This document shows, in pieces, positions 21,909 to 38,520 of a DNA stretch of 64,000 nucleotides (positions are counted from its first letter, which is position 1; the number at the start of each line of letters is the position of its first letter). Source of the stretch: Natronomonas sp. (GTDB lineage: Archaea > Halobacteriota > Halobacteria > Halobacteriales > Haloarculaceae); contig NZ_JBLGBY010000001.1 of NCBI RefSeq assembly GCF_047616845.1, forward strand, positions 18,631 through 82,630, given 5' to 3'. The notes below the pieces were generated by a model. It was not told the origin of the DNA and ran no database searches. It saw nothing but the letters and a program-made list of their open reading frames with translations. Position numbers and translations under genes: made by a program.

Positions 21909-21993
21909 GCGTGGGTAGCCAAGCTAGGCCAACGGCGCAGCGTTGAGGGCGCTGTCCTGTAGAGGTCCGCCGGTTCAAATCCGGTCCCACGCA
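21909..21993 (+). tRNA. tRNA-Leu(GAG)
   Basis: Acceptor GCGTGGG/CCCACGC, anticodon arm CAGCG-TTGAGGG-CGCTG, long variable arm, TTCAAAT T-loop; CCA not encoded. Confidence 0.95.
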
Positions 21994-22153
21994 CTGCCGG
22001 CGATCACAGTCGCCGAAGTCAGTGCGGGTGCTCGAAGACAGCACCCACGCAAACTTCTCACGAAACCAACTGAAAAGCGGCGCTGCCGTCCGTTGTAACA
22101 CGACAGACAGCCGGCTGGCTATCCGCCCACAGCGACCACTCATCGAGAAGCGA

Positions 22154-28817: not shown

Positions 28818-29324
28818 CTACTCGTCGGTCAGAATCTCCGAAGATTCCATGTGCTCACGCGAGAGCTCCACGTAGCGTTGGCCTGCATAGGCCCACGGCG
28901 AGTCCTCGACCTCCTTGATCTTCTCCGCCGGCGTGCCGGCATAGAGGGTGTTCGGCTCGATTTCGCTGTCTTCCGTGACGAGGCTGTTGGCACCGACCAT
29001 CGCCTCTTCGCCGATGGTCGAGCGGTCGAGAACGGTCGCGCTCATGCCGACAAGGGCGCGTTCCTCGACGGTCGCGTTGTGGACGATTGCAGTGTGGCCG
29101 ACCGTCGCGTACGGGCCGATCTGGGCACCCTCATGGAGCACGGCGTTGTCCTGGACGTTTGAGCCCTCTTCGAGCCGGATGTTCCCGTGGTCGCCACGAA
29201 TCGTCACGTTCGGCCAGACGCTTGCGTCCTTCTCGATGGTCACATCGCCGATGACGACTGCTGTGGGGTCAACGTACGCATCCTCGTGGACGTCCGGTTC
29301 GATGCCGTCGAAACTGCGGAGCAT
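28818..29324 (-). CDS. Gamma carbonic anhydrase family (hexapeptide repeat) protein
   Basis: IRGD, SNVQDNAVLH, VGHTAIVH and AGTPA motifs. Confidence 0.9.
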   Translation of the reverse strand: MLRSFDGIEPDVHEDAYVDPTAVVIGDVTIEKDASVWPNVTIRGDHGNIRLEEGSNVQDNAVLHEGAQIGPYATVGHTAIVHNATVEERALVGMSATVLDRSTIGEEAMVGANSLVTEDSEIEPNTLYAGTPAEKIKEVEDSPWAYAGQRYVELSREHMESSEILTDE

Positions 29325-29654
29325 ATCGGACACTCCGGAGGTGGCGTGTTAAACGTACGGTCGGCGGTGGACGGTCGACCGCAAGGATGAATATTTGTCA
29401 ACTTCCGAACCGCGCGCGAGCCGCAAAACTGGTTGTTTCTCCACTCATAGGGCGAAATCATCTATCACACGATTATTTAAGCAGGGTATGCACGGGCTCT
29501 GGCACTGTAGCATACAAGGACGGCCGAAGAGATATTAGGCATTTACGTCGTGCGGTTTCGACGATTCGGCCGGATAGCACGTCCTCTGAATACCCGTCCA
29601 ACATCTGTTTCAAAGACAGCTTTAAATACCTGGAACGCGCTTGCATCGATTGCA

Positions 29655-29720
29655 ATGACACAGCACGAGGATACGTCGCCTTCGGCGGCGGATCGAGTTC
29701 TTCCAGGGCACGCTAGATAG
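29655..29720 (+). CDS. 21-aa upstream ORF overlapping the leuA frame (MTQHEDTSPSAADRVLPGHAR)
   Basis: ATG about 27 nt after TTTAAATA (29621-29628), the spacing of a leaderless start; stop TAG at 29718-29720. Confidence 0.55.
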   Translation: MTQHEDTSPSAADRVLPGHAR

Positions 29721-30870
29721 TACCTCGGAGATAAGCGAGGCCCGAATTTTCGATACGACGCTGCGCGACGGCGAACAGTCACCGCGAACTTCGTTCAGTT
29801 ACGAGGATAAACGCGAGATAGCCGCCATCCTGGATGACATGGGAACACACGTCATCGAGGCCGGCTTCCCCGTGAACTCCGACGCGGAGTTCGAAGCGGT
29901 ACAGGACATCGCCGACGCGACATCCACCACGGTCTGCGGGCTCGCCCGCGTGGTGGAGAAGGACATCGACGCCGCGCTGGATTCCGGCGTCGAGATGGTG
30001 CACGTCTTCGCGTCCACCAGCGATGTCCAGCTGCAGGATTCGATGCACGCCACACGTCAGGAGGCGCTCGACCGGTCGGTAGCGGCCGTCGAGCGCGTCA
30101 AAGACGCCGGCGTTACCTGCATGTACTCGCCGATGGACGCCACGCGCACCGATGAATCGTTCCTGATCGACGTCATCGAGGCCGTCTCCGACGCCGGGAC
30201 GGACTGGATAAACATTCCCGACACCTGTGGGGTCGCAACGCCACGACGGTTCTACGACATGGTCGAGAACGTCTGTGCGCACACGGACGCCAACGTCGAC
30301 GTCCACACCCACGACGACTTCGGACTGGCCTCCGCCAACGCCCTTTCGGGCTTCGAGGCGGGCGCCGCCCAATCGCAGGTGTCCGTCAACGGCATCGGCG
30401 AACGCGCCGGCAACGCGGCCTACGAAGAGGTCGTCATGGCGCTTGAGTCGCTGTACGACGTCGACACGGGCATCAAAACCGAACGCATCACGGAGTTGGC
30501 CCGGCTCGTCGAGGAGAAAAGCGACATCCCGGTTCCGGCGAACAAGCCGGTCGTCGGCGACAACGCGTTCTCCCACGAATCCGGCATCCACGCCGCCGGC
30601 GTCATCGAGAACGCCGACACGTTCGAACCTGGCGTGATGACCCCGGAGATGGTCGGTGCGACGCGTGAACTGGTGCTCGGAAAACACACCGGCACGCACT
30701 CGGTACGAGAGCGGCTGGAAGACGCCGGTTTCGACCCGACCGACGCGGAAGTCCGTGAGGTGACCCGCATGGTGAAAGACCGCGGCGCGCAAAAGGAGAA
30801 GGTCACCTTCGAGCGGCTCAAGGAGTTTGCCCGCGAGGTGGGCGTCCGACGCGAGGAGGTTCGCGCATAG
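29659..30870 (+). CDS. leuA: 2-isopropylmalate/citramalate synthase family enzyme without canonical start codon and without C-terminal regulatory domain
   Basis: Open frame 29659-30870 with DTTLRDGEQ (29752-29778), HTHDD, GIGERAGN and HESGIH. First ATG (29839) lies after the catalytic motif. Confidence 0.88.
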   Translation, partial: HSTRIRRLRRRIEFFQGTLDSTSEISEARIFDTTLRDGEQSPRTSFSYEDKREIAAILDDMGTHVIEAGFPVNSDAEFEAVQDIADATSTTVCGLARVVEKDIDAALDSGVEMVHVFASTSDVQLQDSMHATRQEALDRSVAAVERVKDAGVTCMYSPMDATRTDESFLIDVIEAVSDAGTDWINIPDTCGVATPRRFYDMVENVCAHTDANVDVHTHDDFGLASANALSGFEAGAAQSQVSVNGIGERAGNAAYEEVVMALESLYDVDTGIKTERITELARLVEEKSDIPVPANKPVVGDNAFSHESGIHAAGVIENADTFEPGVMTPEMVGATRELVLGKHTGTHSVRERLEDAGFDPTDAEVREVTRMVKDRGAQKEKVTFERLKEFAREVGVRREEVRA

Positions 30871-30999
30871 GAATGTCCACCGCGGACGGCTTTCATCCAC
30901 GACAGCGACGGGTGAACGGCGGCATCGACGGACGGGCACGGAGCAACGCTTGCCCAACGCGGAACGCTTATGATCGTCCACTGCGGTATTATCGACGTG

Positions 31000-31074
31000 A
31001 TGAGGGACGTGACCGCTGGCACTCGAACGCCCCCGCGTTCGCCCAGCATCGCGATTATTGTAGGGGCTGTCTAG
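31000..31074 (+). CDS. Putative Ile/Val-rich leader peptide of the ilvB operon (MRDVTAGTRTPPRSPSIAIIVGAV)
   Basis: ATG about 27 nt after a TTATGA TATA-like box; ends ATC GCG ATT ATT GTA GGG GCT GTC TAG. Confidence 0.6.
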   Translation: MRDVTAGTRTPPRSPSIAIIVGAV

Positions 31075-31082
31075 CCCCTACA
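31059..31082 (+). promoter_or_regulatory. Hairpin over leader-ORF stop codon (attenuator-like)
   Basis: TGTAGGGGCT-GTCT-AGCCCCTACA, perfect 10-bp stem, followed by pyrimidine-rich TTCTCTTC. Confidence 0.55.
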
Positions 31083-31195
31083 CAACCGTTCTCTTCGTTG
31101 CAGTTCGCATCGCTTTCAGACAGTTTCACGGACAGAATAATGTACACACGAGACACCAATCGACGGTATCGCACACACGACGGAGGTGCGTCGGC

Positions 31196-32941
31196 ATGAG
31201 CGACGCGCCACAACAGACGCCCCAGGAGGCCGACAGTGCCGAAGCGGGGCCCACGGACATCGAGACGGGCGCTGACGCGGTCGTTCGCGCGCTGGAAAAC
31301 GCCGGCGTCGAACACCTCTTCGGCGTGCAGGGTGGGGCTATCATGCCTGTTTACGACGCCCTGTATCACTCGGATATGACGCACATCACGATGGCCCACG
31401 AGCAGGGTGCCGCCCACGCCGCCGACGCATACGGCATCGTCAGCGGCGAGCCGGGCATCTGTATGGCCACCTCCGGGCCGGGCGCGACGAACCTCGTTAC
31501 CGGGCTGGCCGACTCGAACATGGATTCCGACCCCGTAGTCGCGTTGACCGGCCAGGTGCCGACGGATTTCGTCGGCAGCGACGCCTTCCAGGAGACGGAC
31601 ACCATCGGCGTTACGACGCCAATCACGAAGGCGAACTTCTTCGCCGACGACCCCGAATCGGTCGGCACGGACGTCGGCACGGCCTTCGCGCTGGCGAAGC
31701 GCGGCCGACAGGGCCCGACGCTCGTCGACCTCCCGAAGGACGTAACGAAGGGTGAGGCAAGCGACGACCCCGGCGCCCCCGAGACCCCCGCGACGTACCA
31801 CCCGCCGGAGACGGCCGAACCCGAAGCGGTGACCGAAGCCGCCGACGTCCTCGCGGCGGCCGACAAGCCGATCATCCTCGCCGGCGGCGGCGTCATCAAA
31901 GCCGAAGCCAGCGACGAGATTCGTGCCTTCGCGAAAGAACACGAGATTCCGGTCGTCACGACGATGCCCGGCATCGGCGCGTTCCCGGAAGACCACGAAC
32001 TCGCCTTGGAGATGGCTGGCATGCACGGCACCGGCTACGCCAACATGGCCATCACGATGACCGACTGCATGCTGGCGGTCGGCACCCGATTCGACGACCG
32101 CCTGACTGGCGGCGTCGAGACGTTCGCACCCGACGCGGAGATCATTCACGTCGAAATCGACCCGCCGGAGGTCTCGAAGAACGTCGAGGCCGACTACCCG
32201 CTCATCGGCGACGCGAAAGCCGTGATGGAGCAGCTGGAGACCGCGATGCCGCGGTCGCCGGCCGCCGACACCTGGCGCTCGCAGACTCAGCAGTGGAAAA
32301 AAGAGTATCCGATGGATTATGCGGCGCCGGAAGACGAGCCGGTCAAACCGCAGTACGTCGTCGAGGCTTTCGACAACGCGACGGCCGACGACGCCATCGT
32401 CACGACCGGCGTCGGCCAACACCAGATGTGGGCCTGCCAGTACTGGACGTACAAGGAGCCCCGGACGTGGGTCTCCTCACACGGCCTCGGCGCGATGGGC
32501 TACGGCGTGCCCGCCACCATCGGCGCGAAGCTGGCGGCGCCTGACAAGGACGTCGTCTGCTTTGACGGCGACGGCTCTTTCCTGATGACGTGTCAGGGCC
32601 TCTCCGTGGCAGTGCGTGAGAACCTCGACATCACCATCGTCGTGTTGAACAACGCGGCTATCGGCATGGTTCGACAGTGGCAGGACGCCTTCTTCGGCGA
32701 GCGCCACATGGCCTCGGAATACCCCTGGATTCCGGATTTCGACACGCTCGCAGAGGCGTTCGGAGCCCGCGGCTTCCGAATTGACACCTACGACGAGGTC
32801 GAAGAGGTCGTTGAGGAAGCCATCGCGTACGACGGCCCGAGCATCGTCGACGCACACATCGACCCCGGTGAGAACGTCTATCCGATGGTGCCGAGCGGCG
32901 GCGACAACGGCATGTTCGCCCTCTCGGAGGAGCAGCTATGA
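31196..32941 (+). CDS. ilvB: Acetolactate synthase large subunit
   Basis: HEQGAAH, TSGPGATN, GVGQHQMW and GDGSF...NN TPP motif. Confidence 0.96.
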   Translation: MSDAPQQTPQEADSAEAGPTDIETGADAVVRALENAGVEHLFGVQGGAIMPVYDALYHSDMTHITMAHEQGAAHAADAYGIVSGEPGICMATSGPGATNLVTGLADSNMDSDPVVALTGQVPTDFVGSDAFQETDTIGVTTPITKANFFADDPESVGTDVGTAFALAKRGRQGPTLVDLPKDVTKGEASDDPGAPETPATYHPPETAEPEAVTEAADVLAAADKPIILAGGGVIKAEASDEIRAFAKEHEIPVVTTMPGIGAFPEDHELALEMAGMHGTGYANMAITMTDCMLAVGTRFDDRLTGGVETFAPDAEIIHVEIDPPEVSKNVEADYPLIGDAKAVMEQLETAMPRSPAADTWRSQTQQWKKEYPMDYAAPEDEPVKPQYVVEAFDNATADDAIVTTGVGQHQMWACQYWTYKEPRTWVSSHGLGAMGYGVPATIGAKLAAPDKDVVCFDGDGSFLMTCQGLSVAVRENLDITIVVLNNAAIGMVRQWQDAFFGERHMASEYPWIPDFDTLAEAFGARGFRIDTYDEVEEVVEEAIAYDGPSIVDAHIDPGENVYPMVPSGGDNGMFALSEEQL

Positions 32942-33570
32942 GCCGCAATCAGAACACCCACCGGAACGGGCTGGAAGGCCCCGAGCCGGAGGAACGGCAG
33001 CGACCTGTCGGCCGACGCAACTCTCAAGGTATCCGCGTCGACCCAGAGGTCGAGGCCGAACACGAGCCACGACGCACCATTATCTCCGCGTACGTGGCCG
33101 ACGAGCCGGGCGTGCTCGCACGCGTCTCCGGGCTGTTCCACCGACGGCAGTTCAACATCGAGTCGCTGACGGTCGGCCCGACGCAGAACGAGGGCTACTC
33201 CCGTATCACCCTCGTCATCGAGGAGCCCGAACCCGGTATCGAGCAGGCAAAAAAGCAGCTGAACAAGGTGCTTCCGGTCGTCCACGTTCGGGAACTCGAT
33301 CCCGACCCCGTCGCCCGCGAGCTTGTCATCCTGAAGGTCAACGGCGACGAGCCGGACAAGGTGCAGGCCATCACGGAGATGTACGACGGTGAGACGCTCG
33401 ACGCCGGCCCGCGGACGATTTCGGTGCAGATCACCGGCGACGAGAGCAAGATCGACGACGCTATCGACGCCTACGAACAGTTCGGCATTCGGGAGATCGC
33501 CCGCACCGGACAGGCGGCACTGGCCCGTGGCGAAGAGGAAACCGCACGCGTTGACGAGACACACACATGA
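32938..33570 (+). CDS. ilvN: Acetolactate synthase small subunit
   Basis: [24 protein letters not shown] domain and EIARTG. Confidence 0.94.
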
Positions 33571-34559
33571 GTGCAGACATCTACTACGACGACGACGCTG
33601 ACAGCACCGTACTCAACGACACGACCGTGGCCGTACTCGGCTACGGCAGCCAGGGCCACGCCCACGCACAGAACCTCGATGAATCCGGCGTGGACGTGGT
33701 TGTTGGACTCCGAGAGGAGTCGTCCTCCCGCTCGGCCGCGAAGGCCGACGGCCTCGACGTGGAGACACCGCGAAACGCCGCGGAACAGGCCGACGTCGTG
33801 AGCGTGCTGGTGCCCGACACCGTCCAGCCTACCGTTTACGAGGAAATCGAAAGCGTCCTCACGCCGGGTGATACGCTGCAGTTCGCCCACGGATTCAACA
33901 TCCACTACGGCCAGATCGAGCCGAACGAGGACATCAACGTCACGATGGTCGCGCCGAAATCGCCCGGCCATCTCGTCCGCCGAAATTACGAGAACGACGA
34001 GGGCACGCCCGGCCTCCTGGCAGTGTATCAGGACGCCGCCGGCGACGCCCACGATGTCGGGTTGGCGTACGCGAAAGCCATCGGCTGCACGCGCGCCGGC
34101 GTCGTCGAGACGTCGTTCCGCGAGGAGACCGAAACCGACCTCTTCGGCGAGCAGGCCGTCCTCTGTGGCGGCGTCACCAGCCTCGTCAAGCAGGGCTACG
34201 AGACGCTCGTCGATGCGGGCTACAGCCCCGAAATGGCATATTTCGAGTGTCTGAACGAGCTGAAACTCATCGTCGACCTGATGTACGAAGGCGGGCTCGG
34301 CGAAATGTGGGACTCCGTTTCCGACACCGCCGAATACGGCGGGCTGGTTCGCGGCGACGAAGTCGTCGACGAGCACGCCCGCGAGAACATGGAGGAAGTC
34401 CTGGAGGCCGTCCAGGACGGCACGTTCGCACGCGAGTGGATCAACGAGAATCAGGCTGGCCGACCAAGCTACAAGCAGTTGCGACAAGCCGAGAAGAACC
34501 ACGAGATCGAGGACGTGGGCGAAGACCTGCGTTCGCTGTTCGCGTGGGGTGAAGAATGA
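33567..34559 (+). CDS. ilvC: Ketol-acid reductoisomerase
   Basis: [14 protein letters not shown] and ETDLFGEQ motifs. Confidence 0.96.
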
Positions 34560-34792
34560 CAGACGAAACCGACAAACAGACACTGGGAGAGATGAGCCAC
34601 ACCAACCCCTACACGGGGAAGGTGTTCGGCGATACACAGACGTACAGCCGCGGGACGACCATCGCCGCAGACGGCGGCGAGGCGGAGGCCGTTCCCGAGG
34701 AGACCGACACACTGGGCGAGATGAGCCATACCCCACCGAGGGACGCCAAGAGCGCCCAACGCGCCTATGACCGTGGTGTAGACGATGAGTGA
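34556..34792 (+). CDS. Small acidic protein with internal duplication
   Basis: Overlaps ilvC stop and leuC start; TLGEMSHT occurs twice. Confidence 0.7.
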
Positions 34793-36209
34793 GGGGACGC
34801 TGTACGACACGGTCTGGGACACCCACAAGGTGACGACGCTGCCGAACGGCCAAGACCAGCTGTTCGTCGGCCTGCATCTCATCCACGAGGTGACGAGCCC
34901 GCAGGCGTTCGGCATGCTCCGGGAGCGAGATATCGATGTCGCACGGCCCGACCTGACGCATGCGACCGTCGACCACATCGTCCCGACGGACGACCAATCG
35001 CGCCCGCTGGACAACGAGGCGGCCGAGGAGATGATGGCCGAACTCGAGGAGAACGTCCGCGATGCGGGCATCGAACTGGACGACCCGACGACGGGCGACC
35101 AGGGTATCGTTCACGTCATCGGGCCGGAGCAGGGGCTCACCCAGCCCGGCATGACCATCGTCTGTGGTGACAGCCACACCTCGACGCACGGTGCCTTCGG
35201 CGCTCTGGCGTTCGGCATCGGCACCTCACAGATTCGCGACGTGCTGGCGACCCAGACCATCGCGATGGAGAAAAAGAAGGTGCGCAAAATCGAGGTCACC
35301 GGCGAACTCGGTGACGGCGTCACCGCAAAGGACGTCATCCTGACCATCATCCGTCGGCTCGGCACCGACGGCGGCGTCGGCTACATCTACGAGTACGCCG
35401 GCGAGGCCATCGAGAGCCTCGGAATGGAGGGTCGGATGTCCATCTGTAACATGTCCATCGAGGGCGGCGCCCGTGCGGGCTACGTGAATCCCGACGAGAC
35501 CACCTACGAGTGGCTGCGGGAGACGGACGCCTTCGATGACGACCCCGAGCGCTTCGAGCGGCTGAAACCGTACTGGGAGTCCATCCGCTCCGAGGACGAC
35601 GCCGAGTACGACGACGTCGTCACAATTGACGGCTCGGCAATCGAGCCGGTCGTGACCTGGGGAACGACCCCTGGCCAGGGCATCGGTATCTCCGAGGAGA
35701 TTCCGGCCCCCGAAGCCCTGCCCGAGGACAAACAAGACACCGCACGACGCGCCCAAGAGCACATGCGCGTCGAGCCCGGCGAGACGATGGACGGGTACGA
35801 CATCGACGTCGCCTTCCTGGGTTCCTGTACGAACGCGCGGCTGCCCGACCTTCGTGCGGCCGCAGAGATCGTCGATGGCCGCCAGGTCGACGACTCCGTC
35901 CGCGCGATGGTCGTCCCCGGCAGCCAGCGCGTCAAGGCCGCCGCCGAAGCGGAGAGCCTCGACGAGGTGTTCACCGAAGCCGGCTTTGATTGGCGCGAGG
36001 CCGGCTGTTCGATGTGTCTCGGCATGAACGACGACCAACTCGAGGGCGACGAGGCGTGTGCCTCCTCCTCGAACCGGAACTTCGTCGGCCGACAGGGCTC
36101 GAAGGACGGCCGAACCGTCCTGATGAGCCCCGAGATGGTCGCTGCGGCGGCGGTCACGGGTGAAGTGACCGACGTGCGTGACCTGCCGACGGCGGAGGTG
36201 GAAGCATGA
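34785..36209 (+). CDS. leuC: 3-isopropylmalate dehydratase large subunit
   Basis: [20 protein letters not shown] and GCSMCLGMN motifs. Confidence 0.96.
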
Positions 36210-36892
36210 CGAGCGAGGAACGGAGTTCCTCGAGTAGCCGAGCGGAGAGCGAAGCGACCCGCGAGTCCGAGGAAATCCCGAGCGTCGACTACGTCGAGGG
36301 CTCGGCCATCCCCATCCGCGGGAACGACATCGACACCGACCAGATCATCCCCGCGCGATTCATGAAGGTCGTTACGTTCGACGGCCTCGGGGAGTTCGCG
36401 TTCTTCGACCAGCGATTTGACGACGAGGACAACCCGAAAGACCACCCGTTCAACGAAGAGCAGTACCAGGACGCGTCGGTCATGGTGGTCAACTCCAACT
36501 TCGGCTGTGGCTCCTCGCGCGAGCACGCCCCGCAGGCGCTCGTCCGCTGGGGTATCGACGCCATCATCGGCGAGTCGTTCGCCGAGATCTTCGCGGGCAA
36601 CTGCCTCGCACTCGGCGTCCCAACGATTACCGCCGACACGGAGACCATCCAGGAGTTGCAGGGCTACGTCGAAAAGTACCCCGATGCGGAGGTCGAAATC
36701 GACGTCGAAGCCGAGACGGTGTCCTACGACGACCGGGTCATCGAGGTCGACGTCGACGAAGCCCAACGGAAGGCACTCGTCGAAGGTATCTGGGATACGA
36801 CGGCCCTGATGAAGTCCAACCGGGAGGCCATCGAAGAGACGGCGGACTCGCTGCCGTACATCGACTCCAAGACGGGCCACGCTGATGACTGA
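36206..36892 (+). CDS. leuD: 3-isopropylmalate dehydratase small subunit with N-terminal repeat-derived insert
   Basis: [24 protein letters not shown] and SFAEIF motifs. Confidence 0.95.
36212..36265 (+). repeat. 54-bp palindromic hairpin element in frame within leuD
   Basis: AG-CGAGGAAC-GGA-GTTCCTCG followed by GCGGA-GAGCGAAGCGA-CCCGC-GAG; encodes [18 protein letters not shown]. Confidence 0.78.
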
Positions 36893-37862
36893 GACGATAC
36901 TGGTCGTCCCGGGCGACGGCATCGGCCAGGAGGTCGTCCCCGCTGCCGTCGACGTGCTCGAAGCGGTCGCTGACTTCGAGTTCGTCGAGGCAGCGGCTGG
37001 CGACCACGTCAAGACGGAGACGGGCGAAGCGCTGCCCGAGGAGACGTATCGCCTCGCGACCGAGGCGGACGCGACGCTTTTCGGCGCGGCCGGCGAATCG
37101 GCCGCTGACGTCATCCTGCCGCTTCGTGAAGCCGTCGGCTCCTTCGCGAACGTTCGGCCGGCGCGAGCCTATCCCGGCGTCGACGCTGTTCGACCCGACA
37201 CCGACCTCGTCTTCATCCGCGAGAACACCGAGGGCGTCTACTCCGGCATCGAATCGGAAATCGCCGACGGCGTCACGACGTTGACGCGTGTCATCACCGA
37301 GAAGGCCTCCCGACGTATCGCCGAATACGGCTTCGAATACGCCGAGGAGAACGGCTACGACGACGTGACGCTGGCGCACAAGGCCAACGTGATGCGAGTC
37401 ACGGACGGGCAGTTCCTCGATGCGGCCCGTGCTGTCGGTGACGACCGCAGCGCCGAGTACGACGAGGCGTTGATGGACGCACTGGCGATGCATCTCGTGC
37501 TCCGGCCCGAGGAGTACGGCGTCGTCATCTGCCCGAACCTCGCTGGCGACATGCTTTCAGACCTCGCGGCGGGCCTGGTCGGCGGTCTCGGACTGTTGCC
37601 CAGCGCCAACGTCGGCGCGGAGAACGCGCTGTTCGAGCCCGTTCACGGCTCGGCACCCGACATCGCCGGCGAGGGCATCGCCAACCCCGCAGCGACGATT
37701 CTGTCGGCGGCGATGCTACTGGAGCATCTCGGCTACGACGAGGAAGCGGCGACCGTGCGAACCGCAGTCGAAGGCGTGCTCGCGGACGGCCCACGAACGC
37801 CTGACCTCGGTGGGTCGGCCTCGACGGAGGACGTCACCGCTGCGATTGTCGATCGGCTCTAA
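36885..37862 (+). CDS. leuB: 3-isopropylmalate dehydrogenase
   Basis: PGDGIG, RENTEG and [12 protein letters not shown] motifs. Confidence 0.93.
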
Positions 37863-38327
37863 CTACTCGACTTTTCGTTCCGCGGCCGCAGCAGCTCTGA
37901 CTTCCCCCCAGCGGCCCTCCGCCTCCAGATGCGTCTGTAACTCCTCAGCGTAGGCGGCGACGAGCGTCTCAGCAGCTTCGAGTTTCTCCTCGTCGACGTC
38001 GGATTCGCTGCCGCCATCGCGGCCGAAGCCGAGCGCTTCGAAAACCGAGTCAAGCAAGCCACCGCCGCTGTCCTGCTGGCCTTGTGGTTGCCCCATCGGG
38101 CCCATGCTCGCGACCTTCTCGACTTCGGGCATCATCGTCGGGAGTTCGGAGGTGTCGGCGACGAGTTCGGCGGCTGTCTCGTCGTCCGGGTTCTCGATTT
38201 CGAACGTCGTCGCGGTCATGATGAGGCCCCACTCCTGCCGGGAGAACGGAGAGTTGTCGACGCGTGCGGAGAACTCGTTGTCGACGGCCATCCGGTCGCC
38301 CACGATCATGTCCTGCCAGTCGCTCAT
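37863..38327 (-). CDS. Conserved haloarchaeal protein (DUF5799-like)
   Basis: W.D.IVGDRM.VD and FSRQEWGLIMTA pattern; acidic. Confidence 0.7.
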   Translation of the reverse strand: MSDWQDMIVGDRMAVDNEFSARVDNSPFSRQEWGLIMTATTFEIENPDDETAAELVADTSELPTMMPEVEKVASMGPMGQPQGQQDSGGGLLDSVFEALGFGRDGGSESDVDEEKLEAAETLVAAYAEELQTHLEAEGRWGEVRAAAAAERKVE

Positions 38328-38520
38328 ACAGTACGCACGGGACGCAGGATATTAACCCCGTTGCGAGCAGGCGGCGCTGTACTGTCCGGCGGCCGCGCAG
38401 TATCTGAACCCGGACAGCGGGTCACTGGCGCATGGGGCCGCCTGGTCGCGTCTTCGTACATAAAGAATCGGCTGGGCAAGAACCGGCAAGGACGGACGAA
38501 AACTGGAGCTTCAGGCGGCT

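Follow-up and report, generated by a model that had tools for sequence, protein, structure and literature searches.

The 64,000-nucleotide (nt) stretch of Natronomonas sp. DNA analyzed here (contig NZ_JBLGBY010000001.1, positions 18,631 to 82,630; hereafter the window) carries a set of genes for branched-chain amino acid synthesis in the order leuA-like gene (ending at 30870), ilvB (starting at 31196), ilvN, ilvC, leuC, leuD and leuB-like, as matched by NCBIfam, and IlvB of named relatives is 82-93% identical to that of the window. An original prediction, made from the letters of the window alone, had placed an attenuator-like Ile/Val leader peptide in front of ilvB, and the ilvBNC-leuCDB operon that it named is the one returned by the family matches. 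Here we describe this leader, a leaderless mini-gene with its own internal promoter, together with a second open reading frame (ORF), the bridge, which crosses it from the end of leuA to the start of ilvB. Upstream regions of ilvB were drawn from named contigs and further genomes and 191 distinct leaders were kept, 9 further ilvB loci being skipped for too little upstream DNA or no N-terminal match; 103 leaders that are less than 70% similar form a dissimilar subset. G000 is the label of the window's own genome, and L137 that of the homologous Haloferax volcanii locus.

The motif GTAGGGG was present in 184 of the 191 distinct leaders, and these 184 have a common layout: a TATA box, a leaderless ORF of 19-42 codons ending in Ile-Val(GTA)-Gly, and a GGGG/CCCC hairpin over its stop codon. 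When genomes were scanned with the pattern ATY-RTW-GGGG..stop..CCCC, it was found in 56 of 61, nearly always at a single site, and the reversed control gave 3 matches; one of the matches (G062) falls inside a tRNA-like gene. The conservation of the ilvB leader is far above chance. Ile precedes GTA in 178 of the 184 leaders and in 99 of the 103 of the dissimilar subset, no synonymous Val variant of GTA was found with a looser pattern across the ilvB leaders, and the stop comes 3-8 codons after GTA. Both codons were predicted to be uncommon, and in G000, with long acidic ORFs as the reference, GTA accounts for 3.8% of the codons used for Val and ATT for 11.8% of those used for Ile. The frequency of Ile is 97% at the codon directly before GTA, 29% at codons -3 to -2 and at most 1% beyond -7; Ile and Val codons are concentrated at the foot of the hairpin. 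No amino-acid-level constraint on the body of the leader was detected in the substitution analysis.

The start of the leader was approached from the promoter side. In a search that took the TATA box first, an ATG lay 25-36 nt downstream in 174/184 leaders and was in frame with GTA in 166 of those (94/96 in the dissimilar subset), the spacing having its peak at 32 nt from the first T of TATA (124 cases). An open in-frame ATG 15-40 codons upstream of GTA exists in 179 of the 184, as against 4 and 23 in the other frames, and AA at -37/-36 and TTAT at -32 to -29 are conserved in the promoter. For the window leader, an in-frame ATG at 30970, within the TATA box, and a GTG at 30997 are alternative starts; since the TATA-ATG spacing is conserved at 32 nt, 31000 is favored. 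The TATA-like box, the 24-codon ORF with its ending and the 121-nt distance from the leader stop to ilvB are thus all as originally described (Table 1).

Table 1. Features of the leuA-ilvB region and of related leaders (positions are those of the window unless G000 is named)
Feature	Position	Strand	Remark
leuA leader ORF, 21 codons	29655..29720	+	leuA frame lies +1 at GTT CTT C (29697-29703)
Shine-Dalgarno (SD)-like GAGGAGGT	30853..30860	+	within the final leuA codons (E-E-V), ahead of the bridge AUG
Bridge ORF, 108 codons	30873..31199	+	-1 frame of the leader peptide; begins 2 nt after the leuA stop TAG (30868-30870)
Internal promoter	30961..30973	+	GGAAC, like a TFIIB recognition element (BRE), and TATA-like TTATGA (30968-30973); transcription start predicted at ~30997
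Leaderless leader-peptide ORF, MRDVTAGTRTPPRSPSIAIIVGAV and stop	31000..31074	+	24 codons plus TAG; ends I-A-I-I-V-G-A-V
Putative regulatory codons ATT ATT GTA (Ile Ile Val)	31054..31062	+	Ile directly before GTA in 178/184
Hairpin over stop codon	31059..31082	+	conserved core GGGG(C) 31063-31067 with (G)CCCC 31074-31078
G-depleted C/U-rich tract	31079..31097	+	candidate loading site for FttA/aCPSF1
Conserved TCGCATCG-C-TTTCA element	31105..31118	+	RNA 3′ end predicted at ~31118 by alignment with the H. volcanii site
SD-less internal AUG with short ORF MYTRDTNRRYRTHDGGASA and stop	31140..31199	+	bridge frame; likely ribosome entry on read-through mRNA from the internal promoter
SD motif GGAGGTG before ilvB	31182..31188	+	SD match of at least 4 nt in 123/152 ATGA-type loci
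ilvB start overlapped by bridge stop (ATGA)	31196..31199	+	ATGA in 152/184; 13 more with overlaps +1, +8, +11
argG leader	G000 C14:246-329 (L246/L247), plus L248-L276		CGA run and hairpin over stop
valS leader	G000 C8 from 10211 (L277/L278), plus L279-L288	-	

The hairpin over the stop codon is present as predicted, as a perfect 10-bp stem in the window (31059-31068 with 31073-31082, loop 31069-31072) in which the TAG at 31072-31074 straddles the loop and the 3′ arm. All 184 leaders have the core pairing of this hairpin, GGGG with CCCC, and 158/184 also retain the next inner pair; the outer pairs are less conserved, at 129, 82 and 126 of 184, and the 10-bp length is peculiar to the window genome. 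Because the outer pairs are not kept, GTA is conserved independently of pairing. The spacing of the arms ranges over 5-9 nt, and CCCC stays close behind the stop whether the stop follows 3 or 4 codons. The C/U-rich tract comes next, with G at 0-4% in most of positions 5-17 after CCCC; it pairs with downstream RNA worse than permuted partners do (z +3.7 and +5.5) and avoids pairing. Farther downstream, a CGNAYCG motif is conserved and is followed by the U-tract, where TT[TC] occurs in 119/184 leaders compared with 10/184 in a control window further downstream. In leaders of the Haloferax type, TTTT lies at -3 to -6 and TAT T at -14 to -17 from the 3′ end, which is only a loose fit to the sites described in PMC11616081.

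The folding of the region as a whole is not significant (the 211-nt region folds no better than its shuffles, z -1.06), and the case therefore rests on comparison. In this comparison the Ile/Val codons and the hairpin core were conserved, as expected from the prediction, but the second, 7-bp hairpin that it had pointed out at 31024-31041, though present in the window, has no consensus pairing across leaders and no supported role. A search for an antiterminator helix, in which GGGG was masked, gave a mean pairing probability of CCCC of 0.07, and above 0.5 in 5/184 leaders. Among 36 pairs of windows, no helix co-varied between the leader and the region of the SD-less AUG or the downstream motif (best z -2.4, at most 0.7 kcal), and no general duplex between the leader and the ilvB ribosome-binding site, as in translation attenuators, was found across loci. 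In the window itself, a 9-bp stem at 31184-31210 has the ilvB start codon within its loop and partly overlaps the SD motif; it is not general across loci. Rfam returned no significant match in window 29000-38500 and nothing relevant over the leaders of 10 homologous loci.

The leader peptide of L137 is HVO_1509, which is publicly listed as an uncharacterised protein. A start found by terminator exonuclease (TEX)-enriched differential RNA sequencing (dRNA-seq) lies 3 nt before HVO_1509, with TATA at -28 (PMC4983044, Table S1); this start is leaderless and is not downstream of the ORF, in agreement with the prediction. An RNA 3′ end was mapped 47 nt after the HVO_1509 stop, before ilvB, in Hv-YPC or Hv-Ca cells (PMC7237163, Table S1); the media of this mapping were amino-acid-rich, and the same source points out that such ends may arise by processing. 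The +47 end directly follows TTTTCA and aligns with window 31118. It lies ~25 nt beyond the C/U tract and ~40 nt past the hairpin, with no conserved helix there, and supports neither the proposed terminator of hairpin and adjacent pyrimidine tract nor an intrinsic terminator hairpin with a direct U-run. When four raw RNA-seq runs were mapped on L137, the two deepest showed a jump in depth of ~40-60-fold where the leader begins, and the runs confirm the internal promoter. Low depth continues from leuA into the bridge region in 3/4 runs. Antisense reads were observed over the ilvB start region and inside leuA (L137:576-650 and 1200-1920), and PMC4983044 lists antisense starts in HVO_1510. Read joints close to the ilvB start coincide with a 10-nt direct repeat, and a hairpin was rejected as their cause.

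The identity of the codons at the hairpin foot was then compared between pathways. The 7 of 191 leaders without GTAGGGG are three paralogues with ATT ATT GGGG, L185, in which GTA is kept and the stem is redesigned as GGGCC/GGCCC, one leuA-type leader, and two distant genomes without a leader. The three paralogues (L201-L203) are second copies of ilvB whose leader ends in Ile-Ile-Gly and contains up to six Ile codons. Paralogues with an Ile-only leader (L201, L202, L203 and L198) are located outside the leuA operon and may be Ile-pathway-specific enzymes; L201 adjoins a panB-like gene, as read from sequence, and L202 an eL15 leader (Rfam). In place of the usual leader, ilvB of L179 (G178) has one of the leuA type (GTA GTA ... 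GAT CGA GTT CTT CC), ~1.3 kb from leuA, which suggests a leader swap or duplication. In the two distant genomes (L188 and L189, IlvB 53-55% identical) leuA is joined to ilvB directly, by an ATGA overlap or a 6-nt gap, leuA of L188 overlapping ilvB directly; this arrangement is possibly the state before insertion of the attenuator.

A scan of G000 for the same layout was heuristic, as its strict version missed the ilvB leader itself; the looser version gave three loci, ilvB, argG and valS. All 30 argG loci have a leaderless ORF of the same layout ending in Arg codons, and CGA accounts for 83 of the 112 Arg codons near the stop compared with 13% genome-wide. In 23/30 the stem begins 1-2 nt downstream of the last CGA; compensating changes are seen among its pairs, and a C-rich tract is next. 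An SD-less AUG follows 58-153 nt later, and the leaders have no phase link to argG (phases 14/8/8). Bias to one synonymous codon is a known signature of sensitive regulatory codons (PMC1183508). At valS, the protein type of which matched just 11/41 genomes at the threshold used, a leader ORF of 9-11 codons ends in GTA GTA CGT in 9/11 loci, without a hairpin, and its +1 frame is open to the valS start in 8/9, which suggests a different, possibly frameshift-based Val sensor. The leader codon identity tracks the pathway: Ile-Val, Ile-Ile, Arg-Arg and Val-Val.

This pattern bears on the explanation that the conserved letters are a signal at the RNA or DNA level, such as a protein site or a processing or stability hairpin, with the leader ORF only loading a ribosome and sensing nothing. 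Such a signal would account for the conservation of TATTGTAGGGG reaching third positions (CGT, GGT, ATT), for a leader undetected by ribosome profiling (Ribo-seq; see below) and for a mapped 3′ end that may be a processing site (PMC7237163). It does not lead one to expect that the hairpin-foot codon changes with the pathway, nor that ATT, ATC and ATA interchange, which is synonymous in the leader frame and gives Cys, Arg and Ser in the bridge frame; moreover, the arm spacing of 5-9 nt is unlike a dimeric DNA site. We consider this explanation improbable, and that the leader senses Ile and Val by being decoded very probable, judging from the comparison of sequences.

The bridge ORF, which the original prediction missed together with the conserved SD-less AUG at 31140, crosses the promoter, the leader peptide, the hairpin and the U-tract, and its TGA overlaps the ATG of ilvB. 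Bridge counts refer to 181 loci. An ATG lies within -4 to +5 nt of the leuA stop in 172/181, and in 169 it has the -1 phase and is open past GTA. With GTG included, a -1-phase start within -4 to +8 nt of the leuA stop that is open past GTA was found in 175/181, with 52 different lengths. Of 127 comparable gaps of G000 used as control, 10 hold such an ORF. The bridge overlaps the ilvB start in 161/181 loci (95/100 among dissimilar leaders), and in 12/14 examined cases in which it ends early, a relay AUG at its stop continues to ilvB, 2 other exceptions that read in frame into ilvB being left out of this count. Stops of the -1 frame in three segments numbered 1 in 6643, 0 in 3793 and 6 in 4569 triplets, compared with 114-146, 136 and 42-43 in the other frames (~1-3.6%). 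Since the leader motif itself has stops in frames 0 and +1, the -1 frame is the only way through the motif. L001 differs from the near-identical L087 at a C run that puts leader and bridge both out of frame, as an assembly error or a recent loss.

Initiation signals are found at both ends of the bridge. An SD match of at least 6 nt precedes the bridge AUG in 161/175 loci; in the window this SD-like stretch doubles as the conserved E-E-V codons, so that either role may account for its conservation. At the leuA-bridge and the bridge-ilvB junction alike, stop and start overlap or nearly do so and the upstream ORF contains an SD, and AUGA overlaps give strict translational coupling in H. volcanii (PMC6728339). 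The first AUG after the leader stop lies in the bridge frame in 154/184 leaders, 60-70 nt after that stop, and has no SD in 167/184. The bridge was also considered as a protein-coding gene, and this was rejected: it has no Pfam family, and substitutions are even across codon positions (25 and 27 close pairs); its peptide had no exact match in the protein collection. From the conservation of its frame and its two ends, we hold it highly probable that the bridge is translated and under selection. It would represent a type of element that annotation misses, in which frame, start and stop are conserved and the peptide is not.

The open -1 frame could alternatively mean that starved ribosomes shift from the leader into it, or by +1 on GGGG into the frame of ilvB. 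Indeed, most loci have no stop in the -1 frame between GTA and the ilvB start, ilvB keeps a +1 phase relative to the leader in 154/184 despite a spacer of 76-286 nt, and the valS leaders have the open +1 frame described above. However, the phase of ilvB is kept because the -1-frame bridge spans the spacer, and the open frame extends beyond the promoter, as far back as an AUG at the leuA stop; its openness is explained by the bridge. The bridge frame is not kept open in ilvB paralogues without leuA, nor in argG leaders of the same design, and no slippery sequence precedes the Ile/Val codons. A -1 frameshift from the leader was dropped as a candidate because the open frame begins at the leuA stop and is absent in argG leaders, and a +1 slip on GGGG into IlvB was rejected because the +1 frame is closed in 67/154 loci, at ordinary stop density. 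Frameshifting from the leader is thus highly improbable, and translation of the bridge from its own AUG is the reading that we retain.

A link to leucine comes from the other end of leuA. Among 143 leuA 5′ ends, 124 have no in-frame ATG and 78 no in-frame start of any kind. A leaderless ORF overlaps leuA there, and its conserved GTT CTT C is the site where a +1 slip would enter leuA; leuA likely needs such a slip at the Leu codon. Leucine-dependent slippage into leuA2 (HVO_1510) has already been speculated on in PMC8305020, whose supplement makes no mention of HVO_1509, HVO_1508, attenuation or a leader peptide. An RNA motif named 'leuA-Halobacteria' gave no full-text match and does not appear in the main text of PMC5737381; overlap with it is possible. 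A tRNA-Leu(GAG) gene lies at window 21909-21994, ~8 kb upstream of leuA, and tRNA-Val(TAC) is encoded in G000. The earlier suggestion that the leader and the leuA upstream ORF form a two-part system holds up, and the bridge adds a physical link between them.

Taken together, we consider it reasonably probable that the leaderless mini-gene is an Ile/Val-sensing attenuator of ilvBNC-leuCDB that is crossed by a bridge handing ribosomes from leuA to ilvB. When Ile and Val are plentiful, the ribosome would complete the leader and depart, and the hairpin would reform; its release would expose ~65 untranslated nt to archaeal termination at the U-tract by FttA, and ilvB would not be reached. When Ile or Val is scarce, the ribosome would linger on ATT or GTA, cover the 5′ arm and stay near, or coupled to, RNA polymerase. 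Termination would then be missed, and ribosomes would load at the SD-less AUG and pass to ilvB by re-initiation at the AUGA overlap. FttA is a factor that binds U-rich RNA and cuts the transcript ~23 nt behind the polymerase (PMC11616081, PMC8116511), and mutual exclusion of FttA and the ribosome is stated as a hypothesis in both sources. The weakest step is how the stalled ribosome would block termination, because there is no antiterminator helix and the U-tract would be out of direct reach of a ribosome stalled so far upstream; our guess is that coupling through Spt5 is retained and that the hairpin acts as a synchronising pause. The control by stalling on Ile/Val codons that was originally proposed is accordingly supported by the conserved leaderless ORF, the codons abutting the stop hairpin and following the pathway, and the published start and 3′ end, but not in the form of a bacterial-type switch between alternative helices.

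As a second input, ribosomes finishing leuA would start again on the bridge and so translate across the terminator region up to ilvB. A shortage of leucine would then turn on this operon as well, of which leuCDB are part, and the three branched-chain amino acids would feed an OR gate. More broadly and more tentatively, haloarchaea may possess a ribosome-based amino-acid regulon, characterized by rare cognate codons, a stop hairpin, a C/U tract for FttA and no antiterminator, a design that occurs before ilvB, its paralogues and argG. Together with the leu-ilv ribosome bridge, which would be kept only to bring ribosomes from a leucine-gated leuA over the internal promoter and its attenuator, it could make up a purely translational OR gate for Leu, Ile and Val.

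Several observations weigh against the model of attenuator and bridge. The ilvB leaders stem from related genomes, so that the counts overstate independence, and the near-invariant sensing codons in them are limited to one for Ile and one for Val. Leaders of E. coli carry more sensing codons than this. HVO_1509 is listed as not detected by Ribo-seq or mass spectrometry (PMC10117724, Table 5A), and the table of PMC7261190 gave no entry for its position. Harringtonine Ribo-seq did place two starts upstream of ilvB, annotated as IlvB N-terminal extensions (PMC7261190, Table S1); one is 5 nt off the SD-less AUG, with a non-start codon at the call, and the other 35 nt downstream. RNA reading through from leuA is a few percent of leader RNA. 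In the four RNA-seq runs, the ratio of ilvB to leader depth was 0.13, 0.83, 0.42 and 0.86, little or no drop occurred at the +47 site (+19, -8, -6 and -30%), and in two runs the main drop was 20-40 nt inside ilvB; as growth conditions are undocumented and such libraries often lose 150-nt RNAs, the runs are silent either way on a +47 terminator.

The position of that drop is one point in favor of a different output, in which the leader senses Ile/Val and acts on translation or mRNA survival through the SD-less AUG, untranslated ilvB mRNA being cut or terminated inside ilvB. The SD-less AUG is conserved and has an initiation signal nearby, and leaderless polycysteine ORFs of mycobacteria act on translation (10.1101/834739). 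On the other hand, the mapped 3′ end and the conserved U-tract precede the SD-less AUG, no co-varying helix joins the leader to the AUG region or the downstream motif, and stalling would reduce, rather than raise, initiation if ribosomes were simply handed from the leader to the AUG. We therefore regard this output as unlikely and keep to attenuation before ilvB as the working model. The element bears on whether archaea sense amino acids with the translating ribosome and regulate by ribosome-FttA exclusion, and it is present in the genetically tractable H. volcanii (HVO_1509), where start and 3′ end are already mapped. If the model is true, the bridge explains how one ilv and leu operon answers to three amino acids.

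Neither the full-text literature, from which most subscription journals are outside coverage, nor Rfam returned a description of the element or of an archaeal leader-peptide attenuator, and the literature on HVO_1509/HVO_1510 gave no function for the ilvB leader or the bridge. A Methanothermobacter trp leader with TrpY and a short Met-Trp ORF has reportedly been studied and may be the nearest archaeal precedent. In enterobacterial attenuators the 1:2 pause hairpin covers the stop and the regulatory codons lie at its 5′ foot, and the haloarchaeal hairpin is alike. In E. coli tnaC, a lingering ribosome blocks factor-dependent (Rho) termination at a C-rich, G-poor tract after the leader ORF. The tnaC ribosome stalls at the stop when the amino acid is plentiful, whereas here the stall is predicted at hungry codons, and the factor would be FttA.

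The leader also resembles the enterobacterial attenuators (leu, thr, ilvGMEDA, ilvBN, trp, his; PMC1183508) in having cognate codons with a strong synonymous bias, GTA being comparable to CUA of the leu leader. It differs from them in having no 2:3 or 3:4 helices, two near-invariant sensing codons, a leaderless mRNA and archaeal machinery. In actinobacteria, too, a short ORF with branched-chain codons precedes the acetolactate synthase genes (Mycobacterium tuberculosis ilvB1, PMC13236596; Corynebacterium ilvBNC, PMC10272879, PMC11857589); in the M. tuberculosis ilvB1 leader, GUA is a named regulatory codon and a short leader RNA ends before ilvB (PMC13236596). In the actinobacterial attenuators, terminator and antiterminator hairpins exclude each other and the terminator is Rho-independent, whereas the haloarchaeal leader has one small stop hairpin and no antiterminator, its RNA end lies at an archaeal U-tract, and the bridge ORF overlaps it. 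The element thus works like a bacterial leader-peptide attenuator but lacks two of its defining features, and is not an attenuator of the E. coli type.

Similar in general design are the polycysteine short ORFs of mycobacteria (10.1101/834739), in which a leaderless sensory first cistron is repeated at several loci with the cognate codon; those unmask a sequestered ribosome-binding site, whereas no such duplex co-varies in the haloarchaeal leaders. Finally, both ends of the bridge resemble the termination-reinitiation coupling at AUGA/UGAUG overlaps of H. volcanii (PMC6728339), with an AUGA overlap and an SD inside the upstream ORF. Unlike in that coupling, the upstream partner is here an ORF of 73-223 codons whose peptide is not conserved and which shares its sequence with a promoter and a second ORF; the bridge appears to be kept only for the act of translation.

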